Notes: a model not told the origin generated them from the letters alone. A stretch of 64,000 nt of DNA from an uncultured Nitrososphaeraceae archaeon (GCA_963765895.1 CAVXZB010000087.1:66880-130879); one strand, 5' to 3'. Counted from the first letter of the stretch, positions 11,861-19,960 are shown. Numbers and translations are program-made.

Positions 11861-12746
11861 CTATCTCTGCACTATGGAGATCTTAATCAATTTCATTATA
11901 TCACCAAATGAAGCATCTTTCATAATAAAGGCATTAATTATCCTATCCCGATATTGCTGCGTTGTATCGAATGCTGAACCTCCAATCATAATTGGTAGTT
12001 TATTGTTATACGTGACATGAATTTGTTCAACCAGCCTTTCAGCGGCTTTGATATTTTCTGCAAGTGTTATAGAGATAAATACGATGTCTGGCTGTAGATT
12101 ATGGATATAGTTTACAATATAATCTGTAGGTATAGAAGTCGAAATATTGTATACCTTAAATCCATTATTTAAGAGAATCGACTCTATCATGTTACATGCT
12201 AAACCGTGTAGCTCACCATTTGGGGTACAAGTTACAGCTTTGTATTTGAATGATGTTTGAGCCACTCTAGTTCTTGTAACAATTTGTTCATTTATTATCT
12301 TAACCAGACTAATTACAGTATTAGTACCTAGCATGTTCAGTTGCGACATCTAATTGACCTTGCTGCCACAAGTTCCCAATTCGATACATTACAGGTTTTA
12401 GCAGCTTATCATAAAATTTAGTCAAGCCAAACAATTTGGAATATTTTTCGTAAAGATCCACAAGACCGTTAACGTTGCAATCGGTTAGCAGTACAAATAT
12501 TTCCTCTTGAATCGTCGAAATTAGTATTTTCCTTTCTTCTTGATCGGAGCTAAAAGCCGACAGGAAGGCCAGAACCTTTGCATCACCTCTATATTCTATT
12601 GGTATGTCCTCAATTGTTATCTGCGATGTCTTACCTAAATATTTTATAGTCTGTTGTATGGACATGTTTCTTTGTGGATCCCAAACGCTGTGTACTAGAT
12701 ATGCATAATTAATCCCTTTTACTTTCTTACTTCTGATATAAACCAT
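11861..12746 (-). CDS. Cobalamin-binding (CarH-like B12-binding_2 + B12-binding) protein, split by a 1-bp insertion near 12328
   Basis: LLKPVMYRIGNLW-QQGQLDVAT-EH (W-x9-EH), GELHGLA, IVFISIT, IMIGGSA. Removing one G joins the two ORFs (EHASTNT). Confidence 0.85.
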
Positions 12747-12862
12747 TTTAAATCAGGTATACTATAGCAGGATTTTGTTACCCTCATTATATAAATGAGA
12801 TTAGTGGTAAACCAAGACTTCTGGTGCCAAAAGTTACGATACATAATATTACAACAATCAGC

Positions 12863-13438
12863 TTATGGTTTTATTATAATATTGCTTTTAACTTTTATGA
12901 ATGTCCCTAACTCGGCCATTCTTCCAGAGACATAGCCAGTCAATATACCGTATATTAGATGGAATACAAGTGACCCGCCTATAATGACAGGATATAATCC
13001 ATTGAAATGACCAGCTATATTGTATATAAATTGATTAGGTGCTGATGATGTAAAGGTGTCAAGCCGTGGTTGTATGCCAAATGTTGCAAATGGAACAAAC
13101 AATACTATCCATAATGCCACACCAACTATCATTCCTTTAACAATACCTTCCTTTGAGCTGTATGGTGTCATCTTTGACCAGAAAACTGAAATTTGCCCAA
13201 ATACGTTTCCTGCAGCCATTCCAGTTATAACATGTAGAATAAAGCCAGTATACTGTGCTGTTACTGGATCACTAATTCCAAGTGATATCCCAATGACAGC
13301 AAAAAAAGTTCCTGGAACGGTGCCGGACATGATATCGACTATAACCAGTAGACCTGAAATGGCCCATGCACTGATAAAGCCTGCAATGGAGCAATACAGG
13401 ATAAATTTTCTTCGATCGTTTATTTCTGAAATTTCCAT
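12863..13438 (-). CDS. Membrane protein with two TM His motifs
   Basis: About 4 TM helices; GFILHVITG and FHLIYGILTG. Confidence 0.8.
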   Translation of the reverse strand: MEISEINDRRKFILYCSIAGFISAWAISGLLVIVDIMSGTVPGTFFAVIGISLGISDPVTAQYTGFILHVITGMAAGNVFGQISVFWSKMTPYSSKEGIVKGMIVGVALWIVLFVPFATFGIQPRLDTFTSSAPNQFIYNIAGHFNGLYPVIIGGSLVFHLIYGILTGYVSGRMAELGTFIKVKSNIIIKP

Positions 13439-13460
13439 GTTTCTTTGTTAGGATATCTGA

Positions 13461-13501
13461 TATATAAACAAGTGCCTAAATACTGTTATAGTGCCTAACT
13501 A
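13461..13501 (-). promoter_or_regulatory. TATA box plus tandem GTGCCTAA operator half-sites
   Basis: TTTATATA on the minus strand (13461-13468), about 23 nt before the ATG at 13438; GTGCCTAA at 13472 and 13491. Confidence 0.55.
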
Positions 13502-13505
13502 AATG

Positions 13506-14946
13506 TCAAATGCCGTTCATTCTTATTTTATGATAGACATTATGCGATGCTGCTACAACCGATAAGGCTATACCTGCACCAACAAAATTTCGCAAAGTCA
13601 TTAGTAGATTAGGAGATGTGGCGATCAAAGATTTACCAGAAACAGTATATACATTATCAACAAGCCAGAATGTGAGAGTTATCCATCCGATCACACCTGC
13701 AGTAATAGCTCCAAGTCTTGTTCCAGAAGAAACGAAAAATAGGGAAAAGGCTATAGAGAAATACCACAATCCACTTACAAGTAGCCAGCCAATCTCAAAT
13801 ACTTCTGGTCTTGCATCCAACATATAGTAAGTAGAACCTACAGCTGCCATTGCTAACAATGAGACAATGAGAACTTTGTTATTTAGAGAATGTGTAGTTC
13901 GCTGCCGTTCAGTATTCTTTTTTTTTACATGTTCTTCTTCTTCAACAGCCTTTATTGCTTCTTCAAAGGTTTTTAATCTAAGAGGAATTAATTTTTTTAT
14001 TGCATCATCTTTTACGGTTGCCTCATGTTTTAGGCTATCTATTAGTGGTCTTGCTAATGAGGCCTTTACTGGAGTAATAAGGTCAACCCAGTAAGAAGAC
14101 AATCTTGGAGTAAGAAATGGTATTATTATTATTTTTATAGATTTGTTTATCATTTTTGCATAACGTTTCATCATCTGAATGTAGGTGAGAACCTCTGTAC
14201 CGCCGATATCAAAATCCCTACCTTCAGTATCACTTACGTCGATAGCTTTAACCAAATATTCAACTACATCGTCCACTGATATTGGTTGTGATTTAGTCAA
14301 AACCCACTTTGGGCATACCATCAGAGGCAATCTTTTAACCAGATATTCTAACATTTGGAAAGAGCCGCCACCCTGACCTAAAATGACTGCAGCACGGAAG
14401 ATCGTAACTCTTGCAGAAGATGTTCTTAATATGTCACCGACTTCTTTCCTACTACGCATATGATCAGATATCTTATTACACTCTTCCCCGTTCTCTTCAG
14501 GAATGAGTCCTCCTAAATATATGATCCTATCAACTCCACACTCAGTAGCAGCCTTTGCGAAATTCTCTGCTGCCCTTTCGATCTCTTTCTGAAAATTTTT
14601 TCCATTCTCTAGAAGAGCCTTCCATTGAATGGATAAGATAAAATGCGATAGTCACCCCGGTCATTGCCTTCAGAAGCTGAGGATAATCATTTACATCTGC
14701 TGCGATTGTTTTAAAAGCATCCTTATACTGTTCATATCTCCCTCTCAAAGAATCGATATTGCGAGTCAAACATAATATTTCGTAACTATTGCTAGATAAA
14801 TGAGAAGGGAAAGTAGAAGACGACAGTAATTTGGAGACTACCCTACTACCGATAAAGCCGCTTGCACCAGTTACGAGTACTTTAATCTTAGTTTCCTTTT
14901 TCTTTTCATCAAAATTATGGTTATACGATTTTTCATATTTTTGCAT
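13506..14946 (-). CDS. YbjT-like atypical SDR/NAD-dependent epimerase with C-terminal TM domain, split by a 1-bp insertion near 14573
   Basis: VTGASGFIG, FYLIHSM, IIYLGG (bridging frame), FRAAVILGQGGGSF, LIDSLKHE. Confidence 0.88.
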
Positions 14947-14968
14947 AATTATTAATTACCTATGTCGC

Positions 14969-15317
14969 TTAGATATCTCTAGGGTTAACTTGCAAGGTCA
15001 TCTCTACAAGAAGCTCATGCGTAAGGGCTAGGATGACATTATCTTGGCTGAGATAAACCTCTGTAAGGTTTCCTTGTCCGACTTTTATTTCAGAAGTTAC
15101 TATGATTTCGTTACTATGATTGTCTATCGAGCAGCCAAATAAAACCGACGCTCTACTCGATGGTTCAATATTAAAAGAGTCTTTTGGAGGAGCTAGCAAT
15201 TGTTTTGTTGCCTGCCGAATATTAATAGAATAAGTCTTATCGTACATAATAGCTGTTCCTATAAGATTCGGCCAGGCTTAAATCCAAAAACAAATTAATT
15301 TCCTGTTTTAATTCCAT
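14969..15317 (-). CDS. Small hypothetical protein (start probably 15317, frameshift near 15260)
   Basis: ATG about 22 nt from a TATA box; deleting one G gives MELKQEINLFLDLSLAESYRTAI joined to the ORF-track MYDKTYS. Confidence 0.55.
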
Positions 15318-15338
15318 GCTATAGTATTGGATTCCAAG

Positions 15339-15376
15339 TATTTAAATAATGCCAAAACTGCTGCATAGTGCTAACT
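15339..15376 (-). promoter_or_regulatory. TATA box plus TGCC/TGCT half-sites, same layout as 13461-13501
   Basis: TATTTAAATAATGCCAAAACTGCTGCATAGTGCTAACT; half-sites 19 bp apart. Confidence 0.5.
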
Positions 15377-15750
15377 TTACCATATCATCAATATCATTAT
15401 TAAAGAGCAAATCTATTATAAGTAGTCCGGTAAATGCAGTATCACCCTACTCCAGTCACAAATGCGGATTTTAAAGTTATTAGGAAAGTTTATCAAGGCC
15501 CACAATATTTTCGCTTCATAACTTTAATCAAAATCAATGTTTGGACAGGAATTTGTAAACTTTTACCTACCTATCATGCTCACGTATCAAGCCAATGGTT
15601 TTTCTCAAAATGGAATATAAATTTCGTTTTCCATTTTTAGAAGAAGTATTACGATATACCCTTGGAATGAGTATTTCATAACTATATGAGTATAGCAAAT
15701 AATCTGTTATTATTACATCCATCCATAATAATAATACATCATTTGACCGA

Positions 15751-15774
15751 AGATAGATAGATAGATAGATAGAT
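15751..15774. repeat. (AGAT)6 microsatellite
   Basis: agatagatagatagatagatagat, intergenic. Confidence 0.9.
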
Positions 15775-16091
15775 ACAGAAGCATCGGAGTCATTAATATT
15801 AATATTATATCATTAAGCTTCTAAAGCTGGACTAACTAGGGTTTTCAGACTCATCGTCCAATAACAAATATTATCCTGTTTTTCATGTCTTGTTCATTCT
15901 ATTATTGCCACTACTATCTGCCTTTTACCAACTCTGAACTACTTGCTATGTAATATAGACTGATTATCATCAGAGGTAACGGTTCATAGATTGAATCTTT
16001 CAATTCTCTACTATTGTAAATATATTAAGATGTCAATTCGCAAGCCGCCGGCTGGCGGTAATTTTTTCACGAATCTGGCACCATAGTTCTT

Positions 16092-16592
16092 TTATAAAAT
16101 GTTAATGAACACAATTTCCACTAGGCCTAGCACCAGGCCATATACTAAATGTCCGCTCAAACTTGCTAACGCCGGGAGATGACCAAGAGGATGATTCCAG
16201 GGAGGAAATCCTGTGATGGGCTTGTGTATAGGCACAAGAGTAACGATCCATAAGAGAATCCCGTAAAATATGCCAAATAAACAATATGATAGATTAGCAA
16301 GAGAGAAAGATGATGATGATATGAATGATGTAATGTATGGGAATGCAATTCCGGCAAGAGCTCCGTTTAAAAAATGGAGGAAAAAGATTCCCTTAAAATG
16401 GCTTTCAACCCCAATATCTATTGTATTTGAGAAATGAAGAAACTGTCGCAAACGTTTTATTATGATATAGTTTTCATGCCATTCAAAGACACCGTGAATA
16501 CCCCATCTTTTCCATGATGGCATTTCAGTTATAGTCATGACAGCCGTAGATAAAATTCCCGCCACCAAACCAATGATAAAAAGACATGGCAT
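16092..16592 (-). CDS. Membrane protein (DUF6789/DUF1440-like pattern)
   Basis: GLVAGILSTAVMT, LHFLNG and GHLVYGLVLG; same His pattern as 12863-13438. Confidence 0.78.
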   Translation of the reverse strand: MPCLFIIGLVAGILSTAVMTITEMPSWKRWGIHGVFEWHENYIIIKRLRQFLHFSNTIDIGVESHFKGIFFLHFLNGALAGIAFPYITSFISSSSFSLANLSYCLFGIFYGILLWIVTLVPIHKPITGFPPWNHPLGHLPALASLSGHLVYGLVLGLVEIVFINIL

Positions 16593-16997
16593 TTTAGTAA
16601 CCCTTTTGCTTTGTAGTATACTCTATAGTTCCTAGCAGATATCTGGAACCAGTTAGATGCACTAAACTATGCACTAAAGTTAAGCTGCACATTTCCCCTT
16701 TAATAGTTATCTCCATATAAAGATAGTTAGGCACTATGATACGTTAATAATTATAGTAGTCTCTAAAACTGACATTTCTTCATATATTCCTTGTGCACAT
16801 TAGATGTAAATCATTGTTTAGCGGTTATTTTAGAATTATTGTAGTTATTAGTTTTATTTTATTATAATAGAGTAATATAATAATATGTACACAAAGAGAG
16901 GACAAGAACGATGCAAAATTCCAATTTTTACCTGTTTGGATTGTTACTGGGTTTGAATATACCATCTTCACAAGTCATTGAAGTCTGGTCAAAAACT

Positions 16998-18619: not shown

Positions 18620-19129
18620 CCAGAGAAACAGATCCTAGGCAGATTTGATAGTATTTATCATCAAATGATAAATCTGATCCTGTGCATAGATAATGCGGAG
18701 GATAGTCGGTCCTCATAAAATACGGAATGCAATAAATACCTGCAATCGTCAATTATCGTTTTTAGATTTTCTTAATCTGGAGGGTCGGAAATCTGCAATG
18801 TTCGAATTGGGCGATCTTAAACAAAAGGTGGGGATATTCATTAAATGTATCTACTAAGAAGACAGAATCGGCGGCTTTTCTTGCTCATTCTACCCGTGGA
18901 ATCATTAGTCCTCGTGATATGATATCTACCAAGATCTCAATGATAGCGGAGGGGATAACAGAACTTATTCGTAGTTTTATAGGGTAACCAAGCAATTTCG
19001 AAACTGGTATGGTAGTGCGGACATCACGTTATATTCACTACCTTGAAAATTGTTTGCAGTCAACTCATTCCGGCCACCGTCGAGGTACTAGTATATTGTA
19101 AACTATTGTCGTAGATATGCCAGATATAG

Positions 19130-19960
19130 TTATCCAGCTGATGCAGATGCTCCACCGCCACCTGCTGATGCTGATGCAGATGCTCCACCGCCACCTGCTG
19201 ATGCTGATGCAGATGCCCCATGGTGACCACTACTGGAATGGTCGCTACTATGATGGTTATTACTGTGGTTTGATGAAGACTTATGTCCACTGTCAGAATG
19301 ACTTCCTCCATTGTGGCTGTTGTCGTTGCTGCCTATGACTTCCTCCATTGTGGCTGTTGTCGTTGCTGCCTATGACTTCCTCCATTGTGGCTGTTGTCGT
19401 TGCTGCTATGACTTCCTCCATTGTGGCTGTTGTCGTTGCTGCTATGACCTCCATCATTTGTACTTGTATGCTCATTGCCGCCAGTCAAAGATGATTCATG
19501 GTCACCAGAAAAGATATTATCAGGTACTACTGGGGGGACCTTCTGAACTTGCAGGGGCAATGGGCTGATAGTGTGTAAGTGATATAGGTTGAACTACACT
19601 AGAAGGATTAGTTGAGTTAACCATATTTGTTATCGATGTCGGGAAACTGTTTATACTTGCTTCGTTGGAACTGCCTGTATAATAATGATTGGCAGGAGTT
19701 ATAGGTTGATAATGTACCAGTGAACTTGGTTGGATCTCGCCAGAAGCCAAATTGGTCTGATTATCGAGCACCTTGGATGGTTCGAAAGCTCGGTGATCTC
19801 CTCTATAATTCGGTAGCACAGGGTCCTGCTGGGCAAAGGCAAATTTATTGAAATTGAGAGATGTGGGATTCATGTTTAAAGACAAGCTAAGAGATATCGA
19901 AGAGACTAGTGATAATGCAATTATGACGAGCTTCAATTTGGTACTATAGTTTGAGTACAT
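19130..19960 (-). CDS. Secreted His/Ser/Gly-rich repeat protein (three 1-bp insertions)
   Basis: Signal ending FAFA|Q; two HYQPI motifs; SSNDNSHNGGSH repeats; ASASAGGGG tail. Frameshifts at the G6 run near 19535 and in two repeat copies. Confidence 0.75.
19137..19216. repeat. 33-bp coding tandem repeat (about 2.4 copies)
   Basis: GCTGATGCAGATGCTCCACCGCCACCTGCTGAT units encoding ASASAGGGGAS. Confidence 0.85.
19298..19443. repeat. 36-bp coding tandem repeat x4
   Basis: ATGACTTCCTCCATTGTGGCTGTTGTCGTTGCTGC(C)T starting at 19298, 19335, 19372 and 19408, with no spacers. Confidence 0.95.

Follow-up and report, generated by a model that had tools for sequence, protein, structure and literature searches.

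The regulator gene and its cobalamin domain

Here we describe a putative cobalamin-binding transcriptional regulator, the genes around it and an operator-like repeat at their promoters on a contig of an uncultured Nitrososphaeraceae archaeon (GCA_963765895.1 CAVXZB010000087.1:66880-130879). The analysis was purely computational, and positions are counted from the first letter of the whole 64,000-nt stretch analysed, hereafter the window. The host is a soil ammonia-oxidizing archaeon whose genome encodes an ammonia monooxygenase. The regulator gene (11861-12746, minus strand) is split into two overlapping open reading frames (ORFs) in different frames, one of 141 aa (12321-12746) and one of 162 aa (11861-12349). 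Its residues 1-45 (12612-12746) correspond to a beta module, which is followed by a four-helix bundle carrying a W-x9-EH motif and by a Rossmann cobalamin domain carrying an E-x-H motif. The first ORF matched PF02607 (B12-binding_2, 31.6 bits) and the second PF02310 (B12-binding, 54.7 bits), both scores exceeding the respective cut-offs; W-QQGQLDVAT-EH lies at 12333-12368, and E-x-H, within G-E-L-H, at 12206-12214. Since W127, E137, H138, E178, and H180 were invariant in all 26 aligned family members, the two motifs are not chance occurrences. We take W-x9-EH to house the adenosyl group in CarH, and the histidine of E-x-H to be the lower axial ligand. The original prediction, made from the window alone, had proposed a cobalamin-binding protein with these motifs once the two frames were rejoined, and both the domain matches and the conservation bear it out.

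Comparison with relatives indicated that the gene is split by one extra base at 12327, just 3' of the EH codons. In relatives the gene is one uninterrupted ORF (278-301 aa), and the matching places outside this genome (G000) were single open frames of 250-307 aa in 20 of 20 cases, for example intact proteins of 294 aa (87% identity) and 291 aa (81% identity). We also compared the window with contigs of public soil sequencing runs (X1, X3, and X15 among them), those of X1 being letter-identical to it. The base at 12327 is missing in contigs of the DNA run X3 and the RNA-library run X15, and contigs 98% identical to the window carry an intact regulator. The X15 contigs span the regulator gene, which is no proof of its transcription. 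A neighbouring gene for a short-chain dehydrogenase/reductase (SDR) is likewise interrupted: it has a base too many at 14576, within a CCCTTT run, and this base is missing in all four sequencing runs, including an X1 contig otherwise identical over 668 nt. Furthermore, the family model for amoA matched this genome (G000:C24:168102-168652) in three consecutive frames (model positions 1-86, 84-108, and 109-183), that is, with two frameshifts in an essential gene, so the assembly is prone to indels. Because the relatives are intact, the run contigs lack the extra bases, and amoA itself lies in three frames, the one-base frameshifts at 12327 and 14576 are probably assembly errors.

The closest sequences in the Protein Data Bank (PDB) were those of the Saccharothrix photocobilin (8j2x/8j2w, E value 1.4e-13) and of the Chloracidobacterium CtMerR domain (8jbs, 1.1e-12), with CarH reaching only 8.5e-4. 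An AlphaFold model of the 87%-identical orthologue (mean pLDDT 85.9) gave CtMerR, photocobilin, and Thermus thermophilus CarH (TtCarH) domains as the top Foldseek matches (E values of 7e-12 to 3e-10), methionine synthase being behind or level with them. Matches to the TtCarH domains had E values of about 1e-10 and TM scores by target of 0.76-0.82, and identity to the CtMerR and photocobilin fold matches was only 20-22%. According to the available part of the SignatureFinder paper, the CtMerR cobalamin domain and photocobilins have been shown to respond to light, and the light signature of cobalamin domains consists of GxxW, EH, GxxH, and GxxxP (PMC11796333). Three of these four elements, as given there, are present in the regulator family (GDLW, EH, and GELH). 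The regulator scored 42.6 bits against the NCBIfam equivalog TransRegCarH (NF052513), for which the cut-off is 400. The nearest relatives in both sequence and fold are thus domains of proven light response, which supports a cobalamin domain of the light-responsive type.

An N-terminal head related to IS1634-family transposases

The N-terminus had been described in the original prediction as basic, beta-rich, and different from MerR, with a resemblance to IS1634-transposase N-termini, and both parts of this description hold. Residues 1-80 gave no MerR match and no other Pfam or NCBIfam match at E values of up to 10. When the head was modelled alone from 31 aligned sequences, three long antiparallel beta strands (residues 2-9, 12-23, and 28-39) followed by a helix were predicted, with a pLDDT of about 95 over the strands, so that a beta meander is predicted with confidence. 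The head is basic, with R5, K7, and K10 invariant.

For the comparison with transposases, IS1634-family (NF033559) proteins, five of which carry DDE_Tnp_1 (PF01609), were taken from archaea of the same class, and six full-length ones were compared. A 45-column head profile matched N-terminal residues ~19-53 of five of the six (31.3, 24.7, 17.9, 14.6, and 13.6 bits), against a best non-self score of 9.1 bits among 43,049 six-frame ORFs of this genome. Profile-profile alignment with hhalign gave a 97.2% probability over 35 columns. The DDE catalytic domain found in the five transposases is absent from the regulator, and no IS1634 transposase was found in this genome, which is 88% complete. On the strength of the profile matches and the hhalign result, the head is, judged by sequence, a relative of the N-terminal module of IS1634-family transposases that was recruited into the regulator.

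The first 75 residues were also searched against 1.84 billion representative proteins; 119 were found, mostly members of the regulator family. The same ~40-residue head stands on unrelated tails in proteins of 107-316 aa (P0217, P0221, P0223-P0225, P0228, P0232, P0237, and P0183), including a ~172-aa family and two proteins with Cys-rich ends. These other carriers matched no Pfam or NCBIfam family, and they may be further regulators that use the module.

An operator-like repeat and the genes linked to it

Alignment of upstream regions revealed a common element before the regulator, before a gene for a membrane protein (protein A), and before an operon of a small protein and the SDR. It consists of GTTAG(G)CAC(T/C)A, a second copy of the TTGGCA/TAGGCAC/TTACCAC type 19-20 bp further on (C to C), and TTTA(A/T)ATA within the following 2-9 nt. 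All three copies lie on the minus strand. At the regulator promoter (12788-12832) the half-site C positions are 12826 and 12806 and the TATA box is at 12795-12788; at the promoter of protein A (13461-13499) they are 13493 and 13474, with TATA at 13468-13461, 26 nt before the ATG; at the promoter of the small-protein/SDR operon (15339-15375) they are 15370 and 15351, with TATA at 15346-15339. When the whole 4.9-Mb genome was scanned with a two-part position weight matrix, these promoters ranked first to third (31.0 bits for protein A, 29.6 for the small-protein/SDR operon, and 25.0 for the regulator). The next pairs scored 22.3 and 20.2, which is chance level, control spacings giving 0-4 matches at ≥20 bits, and the regulator site still scored 23.6 when it was left out of training. 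The operator of protein A was kept in 12 of 13 orthologous promoters, and untrained sites were found at further promoters of the relatives' loci. The single 9-mer TTAGCACTA was rejected as an operator signal, as it was not enriched (68 seen, about 61 expected); specificity lies in the paired site only. Two sequencing runs lack one base at 12817 in the regulator operator, which changes the spacing from 20 to 19 bp, as in close relatives; the extra base may be another assembly indel.

Upstream of a second membrane protein (protein B), only a lone inverted first half-site was found beside a TATA-like box (16730-16742, plus strand, 18.2 bits), and the second half-site is absent. The claim that the regulator controls the whole cluster is therefore supported for three promoters, which carry the genome's three best matches; control of protein B is doubtful.

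The association of operator and regulator was then counted across genomes. A loose operator pattern was too noisy (0-6 control matches per genome) and was replaced by a strict one. Among 101 genomes of the host's own family, the strict pattern gave 123 matches, compared with 7 for a reversed control. The regulator was present in 64 of these genomes; gene and motif occurred together in 53 (52 without the unpublished genome G092), the gene only in 11, the motif only in 5, and neither in 32. Three of the five motif-only matches look like noise, and the other two genomes are 72 and 78% complete.

As the first family had partly supplied the pattern, a second family of 81 genomes, one of which had been used in pattern design, provided a cleaner test. 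Here, 53 regulator matches were obtained at an E value of 1e-15, from which methionine-synthase-like frames (820-855 aa, covering profile positions of about 85-262 only) and two short remnants were dropped, leaving a full-length regulator in 33 genomes. The strict pattern matched 25 of the 81 genomes (32 matches and 7 control matches). Gene and motif co-occurred in 24 genomes, the gene stood alone in 9 and the motif in 1, and 47, including the unpublished genome G253, had neither. The sole motif-only genome holds a 101-aa regulator remnant (profile positions 21-104; G147:C1:1500078-1500450) with an intact operator just upstream and no full-length copy. Of 30 second-family loci, 19 have the site no more than 120 nt ahead of the regulator, and 9 more have it about 1-1.25 kb upstream, before the preceding gene, which encodes a secreted ~295-aa protein.

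IS1634-family elements of related archaea (L066, L067, L068, L072, and L073) have terminal inverted repeats of 31-43 nt flanking their transposase genes. These repeats share an AGTTA core on one strand (e.g., CCTAACT and CTGTAACT), and the operator half-site begins with AGTTAG. The half-site might conceivably descend from transposon terminal repeats, the alternative being chance in AT-rich DNA.

The neighbouring genes in the window are all on the minus strand. Membrane protein A (12863-13438, 191 aa) has a His motif and a weak likeness to DUF6789; its cluster look-up returned archaeal hypothetical clusters only, with DUF6789 at 0.89. It is followed in the window by the SDR (13506-14946), which is of the NmrA/NAD_binding_10 type, is fused to a C-terminal membrane domain and is split into two ORFs, and then by the small-protein gene (14969-15317), whose remaining ORF (14969-15247) encodes 92 aa. 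The cluster look-up gave no lead on the family of the small protein. Compared with two orthologues, its gene has a 5-nt deletion between 15259 and 15260 that is common to the X1 and X3 contigs, and this deletion looks real. Membrane protein B (16092-16592, 166 aa), which also has a His motif, shares 29% identity over 115 aa with protein A, of which it is a distant paralogue, and lies downstream of the regulator in relatives. The four co-oriented neighbours are thus as originally described, namely two His-motif membrane proteins, an SDR, and a small protein. The 700 bp that separate protein B from the small-protein promoter are poor in genes and contain an (ATCT)n microsatellite of about six units (15751-15775). 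Elsewhere in the window (19060-19568), overlapping ORFs on both strands contain repeated His/Gln-rich and Gly/Ser/Asn-rich units, so the DNA there is repetitive.

This neighbourhood is conserved. We examined 20 loci around relatives of the regulator (19 from its own family and 1 from the second), in which the recurring order was small protein, SDR with membrane tail, membrane protein A, regulator and, in some, membrane protein B. The SDR adjoined the regulator in 13 loci and protein A in 12; of the remaining loci, three were cut by contig ends and four had the regulator standing apart. In L026, a single promoter precedes the four genes, which follow one another head to tail. A group of paralogues 45-50% identical to the regulator also has the SDR directly upstream, and the SDR was within 1.5 kb of the regulator in 14 of 30 second-family loci.

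Furthermore, genes linked to light and to the repair of UV damage recur beside the regulator in relatives, which supports the proposed link to light. A photolyase gene is directly downstream in the same orientation in L030/L094 and L112, and a photolyase operon is divergent from the SDR and regulator genes in L031 and L027. Pyrimidine-dimer DNA glycosylase (PF03013) follows the regulator directly in L098, L102, and L108, and UvdE and Fpg lie 4 kb upstream of it in L017. DUF1722, the family of the gene preceding photolyase in E. coli, was present in 7 of 30 second-family loci, and a UV-repair-linked gene of some kind was within 1.5 kb of the regulator in 10 of the 30. An amine-oxidase-like oxidoreductase of the flavin adenine dinucleotide (FAD) type adjoined the regulator in 5 of the 30, and in L101, L104, and L111 it is preceded by an operator of its own. 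The operator also fronts a 66-aa glycine-rich two-helix membrane protein, with SRPBCC and glyoxalase-type genes next in L093 and L021; neither a close SRPBCC/VOC orthologue nor a 66-aa gene turned up in a tblastn search of this genome. Genes for such proteins of 65-70 aa stand directly behind a TTACCACTAGTTTATA-type operator in many genomes (L077, L083, L086, L087, L089, L090, and L093), where naive ORF picking often takes the antisense strand. A TFIIB/TFB paralogue is encoded just downstream of the regulator in two second-family loci (L105:2639-3547 and L106:2569-3501), and a MEDS-domain protein and a winged-helix protein flank it in L110, with neighbours that are similar-sized by eye in L114.

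Proposed mechanism, alternatives and relation to known systems

The reading we favour, with somewhat better than even confidence, is that the regulator is an autoregulated, adenosylcobalamin-dependent repressor released by light, like CarH/LitR in action and differently built. CarH binds DNA in the dark as a B12-bound oligomer and is released by light, according to the part of the source available (PMC4557120), and dark binding with release by light is proposed here by analogy. In the dark, the C-terminal cobalamin domain would hold adenosylcobalamin and promote oligomerisation, and the N-terminal three-stranded beta modules would then occupy the two direct half-sites; the distance between these, 19-20 bp or two turns of the helix, would suit an oligomer with its heads on one face of the DNA. 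Because the downstream half-site sits against the TATA box, where the B recognition element (BRE) lies, repression would work by occlusion, with the half-site abutting or overlapping the BRE/TATA region and TBP and TFB kept off. Light would cleave the Co-C bond, the oligomer would dissociate, and the promoters would open. In this genome the regulator is predicted to control itself, membrane protein A, and the small-protein/SDR operon. In relatives the same operator also stands before, and the targets may include, a regulator-photolyase operon, the FAD amine-oxidase-like oxidoreductase, the 66-aa membrane protein (with the SRPBCC and glyoxalase-type genes), and the secreted ~295-aa protein. The form of the cobalamin, the response to light, DNA binding by the head, repression as opposed to activation, and the oligomeric state are what we infer in this scheme.

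Several observations weigh against it. The regulator is frameshifted in the window, and X1, the identical run, has no cover at 12327. The fourth element of the light signature, GxxxP as given in the available part of its source, reads SxxxP (S-T-S-I-P, with Ser for Gly) throughout the family. Searches with the structure of the head alone reached a best Z score of 4.6 (ribosomal proteins, a chromodomain, and a Sac7d-derived binder), and Foldseek found nothing in the PDB at an E value of 0.001; with no significant structural relative, DNA binding by the head is suggested by its homology to an uncharacterised transposase region and by the operator. No photolyase or UvdE was found in this 88% complete genome, where the predicted regulon holds only proteins without an assigned function and strong sites are confined to the cluster, and photolyase was adjacent in only 2 of the 30 second-family loci. 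Of the first-family genomes counted, 17 had also served to design the pattern, a strict match is missing in 11 of 64 and 9 of 33 gene-bearing genomes of the first and second family, respectively, and all these counts are over related genomes that are not phylogenetically independent.

In an alternative reading, the same protein and operator would respond to cobalamin supply or redox state, DNA being bound only by the B12-loaded form so that cofactor status is reported. The cobalamin domain is certain, SxxxP replaces the published GxxxP, the host makes ammonia monooxygenase, and ammonia oxidisers of this archaeal group synthesise B12, all of which would fit. Nevertheless, we consider it unlikely, as W-x9-EH is invariant, about 70 loci showed no gene that makes, salvages, or transports cobalamin, either behind the operator or adjacent, and the recurring partners are UV-damage repair genes. 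The lack of a structural match between the head and a known DNA-binding fold might instead mean that the head is a protein-interaction module and the regulator a non-DNA-binding, AerR-like partner that senses light or B12 for another, repeat-recognising factor. Winged-helix (HTH_45) or TFB genes do adjoin the regulator in L025, L105, L106, and L110, yet no second regulator gene is conserved across loci and the regulator is the only gene always present with the operator; moreover, its head is basic, has three invariant residues, and is a homologue of the N-terminal part of DDE transposases, which is expected to recognise the element's ends. We regard the partner role as slightly less probable still.

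The remaining two readings concern the fate and the class of the protein. The system could be decaying in this organism, with both the regulator frameshift and the 5-nt deletion real and the cluster constitutive or dead, which would be compatible with the other readings. The deletion is common to contigs of two runs, photolyase and UvdE were not found, and 12327 lacks cover in X1; on the other hand, a contig otherwise identical to the window lacks the SDR frameshift, the three frames of amoA indicate that indel errors are common in the assembly, and contigs 98% identical to the window carry an intact regulator. Decay is improbable in our view, to about the same degree as the sensing of cobalamin supply. 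That the protein is the corrinoid carrier (MtbC1) of a methyltransferase system is scarcely credible. Source annotations do label close homologues 'methanogenic corrinoid protein MtbC1', but all corrinoid-carrier models scored far below their cut-offs (TIGR02370, 55 versus 215 bits; MtbC, 37.6 versus 350; MtaC, 26.7 versus 420), no methyltransferase neighbours were seen, and neither the extra head nor the operator has a place in such a system.

The light-released repressor that we prefer leads to a wider proposition, on which we are evenly balanced. Ammonia-oxidizing archaea of two families may own a dedicated photoreceptor-transcription factor, composed of a B12 light sensor and a domesticated IS1634 transposase DNA-binding module, that uses a direct-repeat operator over TATA/BRE to keep genes for photoprotection and UV repair repressed; this regulon would include photolyase, pyrimidine-dimer glycosylase, the SDR-membrane fusion, the FAD oxidoreductase, and small membrane proteins. 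That light inhibits ammonia-oxidizing archaea has long been put forward to explain where nitrification takes place in soils and in the ocean. Our finding supplies a candidate light sensor for these organisms, together with a 40-bp operator and its putative target genes. If correct, it would also add a new output module for B12 photoreceptors, of interest to green-light optogenetics, be an unambiguous example of an archaeal regulator that acquired its DNA-binding module from a transposase, and give a physiological context to the SDR-membrane fusion, the DUF6789-like proteins, the 66-aa membrane protein, and the small protein.

Full-text literature searches yielded no account of such a regulator, of a light sensor, or of a set of genes under light control in ammonia-oxidizing archaea, and none of an IS1634 N-terminal DNA-binding domain. 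A paper on marine strains discusses their photolyases, and the words 'cobalamin' and 'B12' are absent from its main text (PMC4839502). The partners of cobalamin domains named in the available part of the SignatureFinder paper are HTH (helix-turn-helix), DGC (diguanylate cyclase), biliverdin, GAF, and MEDS, and not this head; its text supplement contains no archaeal term, although its figures and network might hold this architecture (PMC11796333).

Among known systems, CarH/class I LitR (e.g., T. thermophilus CarH, PDB 5c8d/5c8e) shares with the regulator the helix bundle and Rossmann cobalamin domain, W-x9-EH, the lower-ligand histidine, a direct-repeat operator over the promoter, autoregulation (predicted here), and photolyase among the linked genes. 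Unlike CarH, with its MerR helix-turn-helix, the regulator has a three-stranded beta head and only weak sequence likeness; no carotenoid genes were seen near it, and, as its host is archaeal, its target would be a TATA/BRE promoter. CtMerR (8jbs/8jbt) and the photocobilins (8j2w/8j2x) are nearest to its cobalamin domain, whereas their outputs are a MerR helix-turn-helix and biliverdin-binding or GGDEF domains, respectively. IS1634-family DDE transposases share the head over their N-terminal ~35 residues, while the regulator lacks DDE_Tnp_1 and is a fixed, non-mobile single-copy gene in a conserved neighbourhood. The mix of genes around the archaeal regulator resembles the Pseudomonas LitR light cluster, which, in the part of the source available, comprises photolyase, a short-chain dehydrogenase, an FAD oxidoreductase, and hypothetical proteins (PMC9758184). 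Such class II LitR regulators are bacterial, have no Rossmann B12 domain, and rely on a LOV partner. The sensing principle is thus already known; the novelty lies in the head, the host group, the operator, and the regulon.

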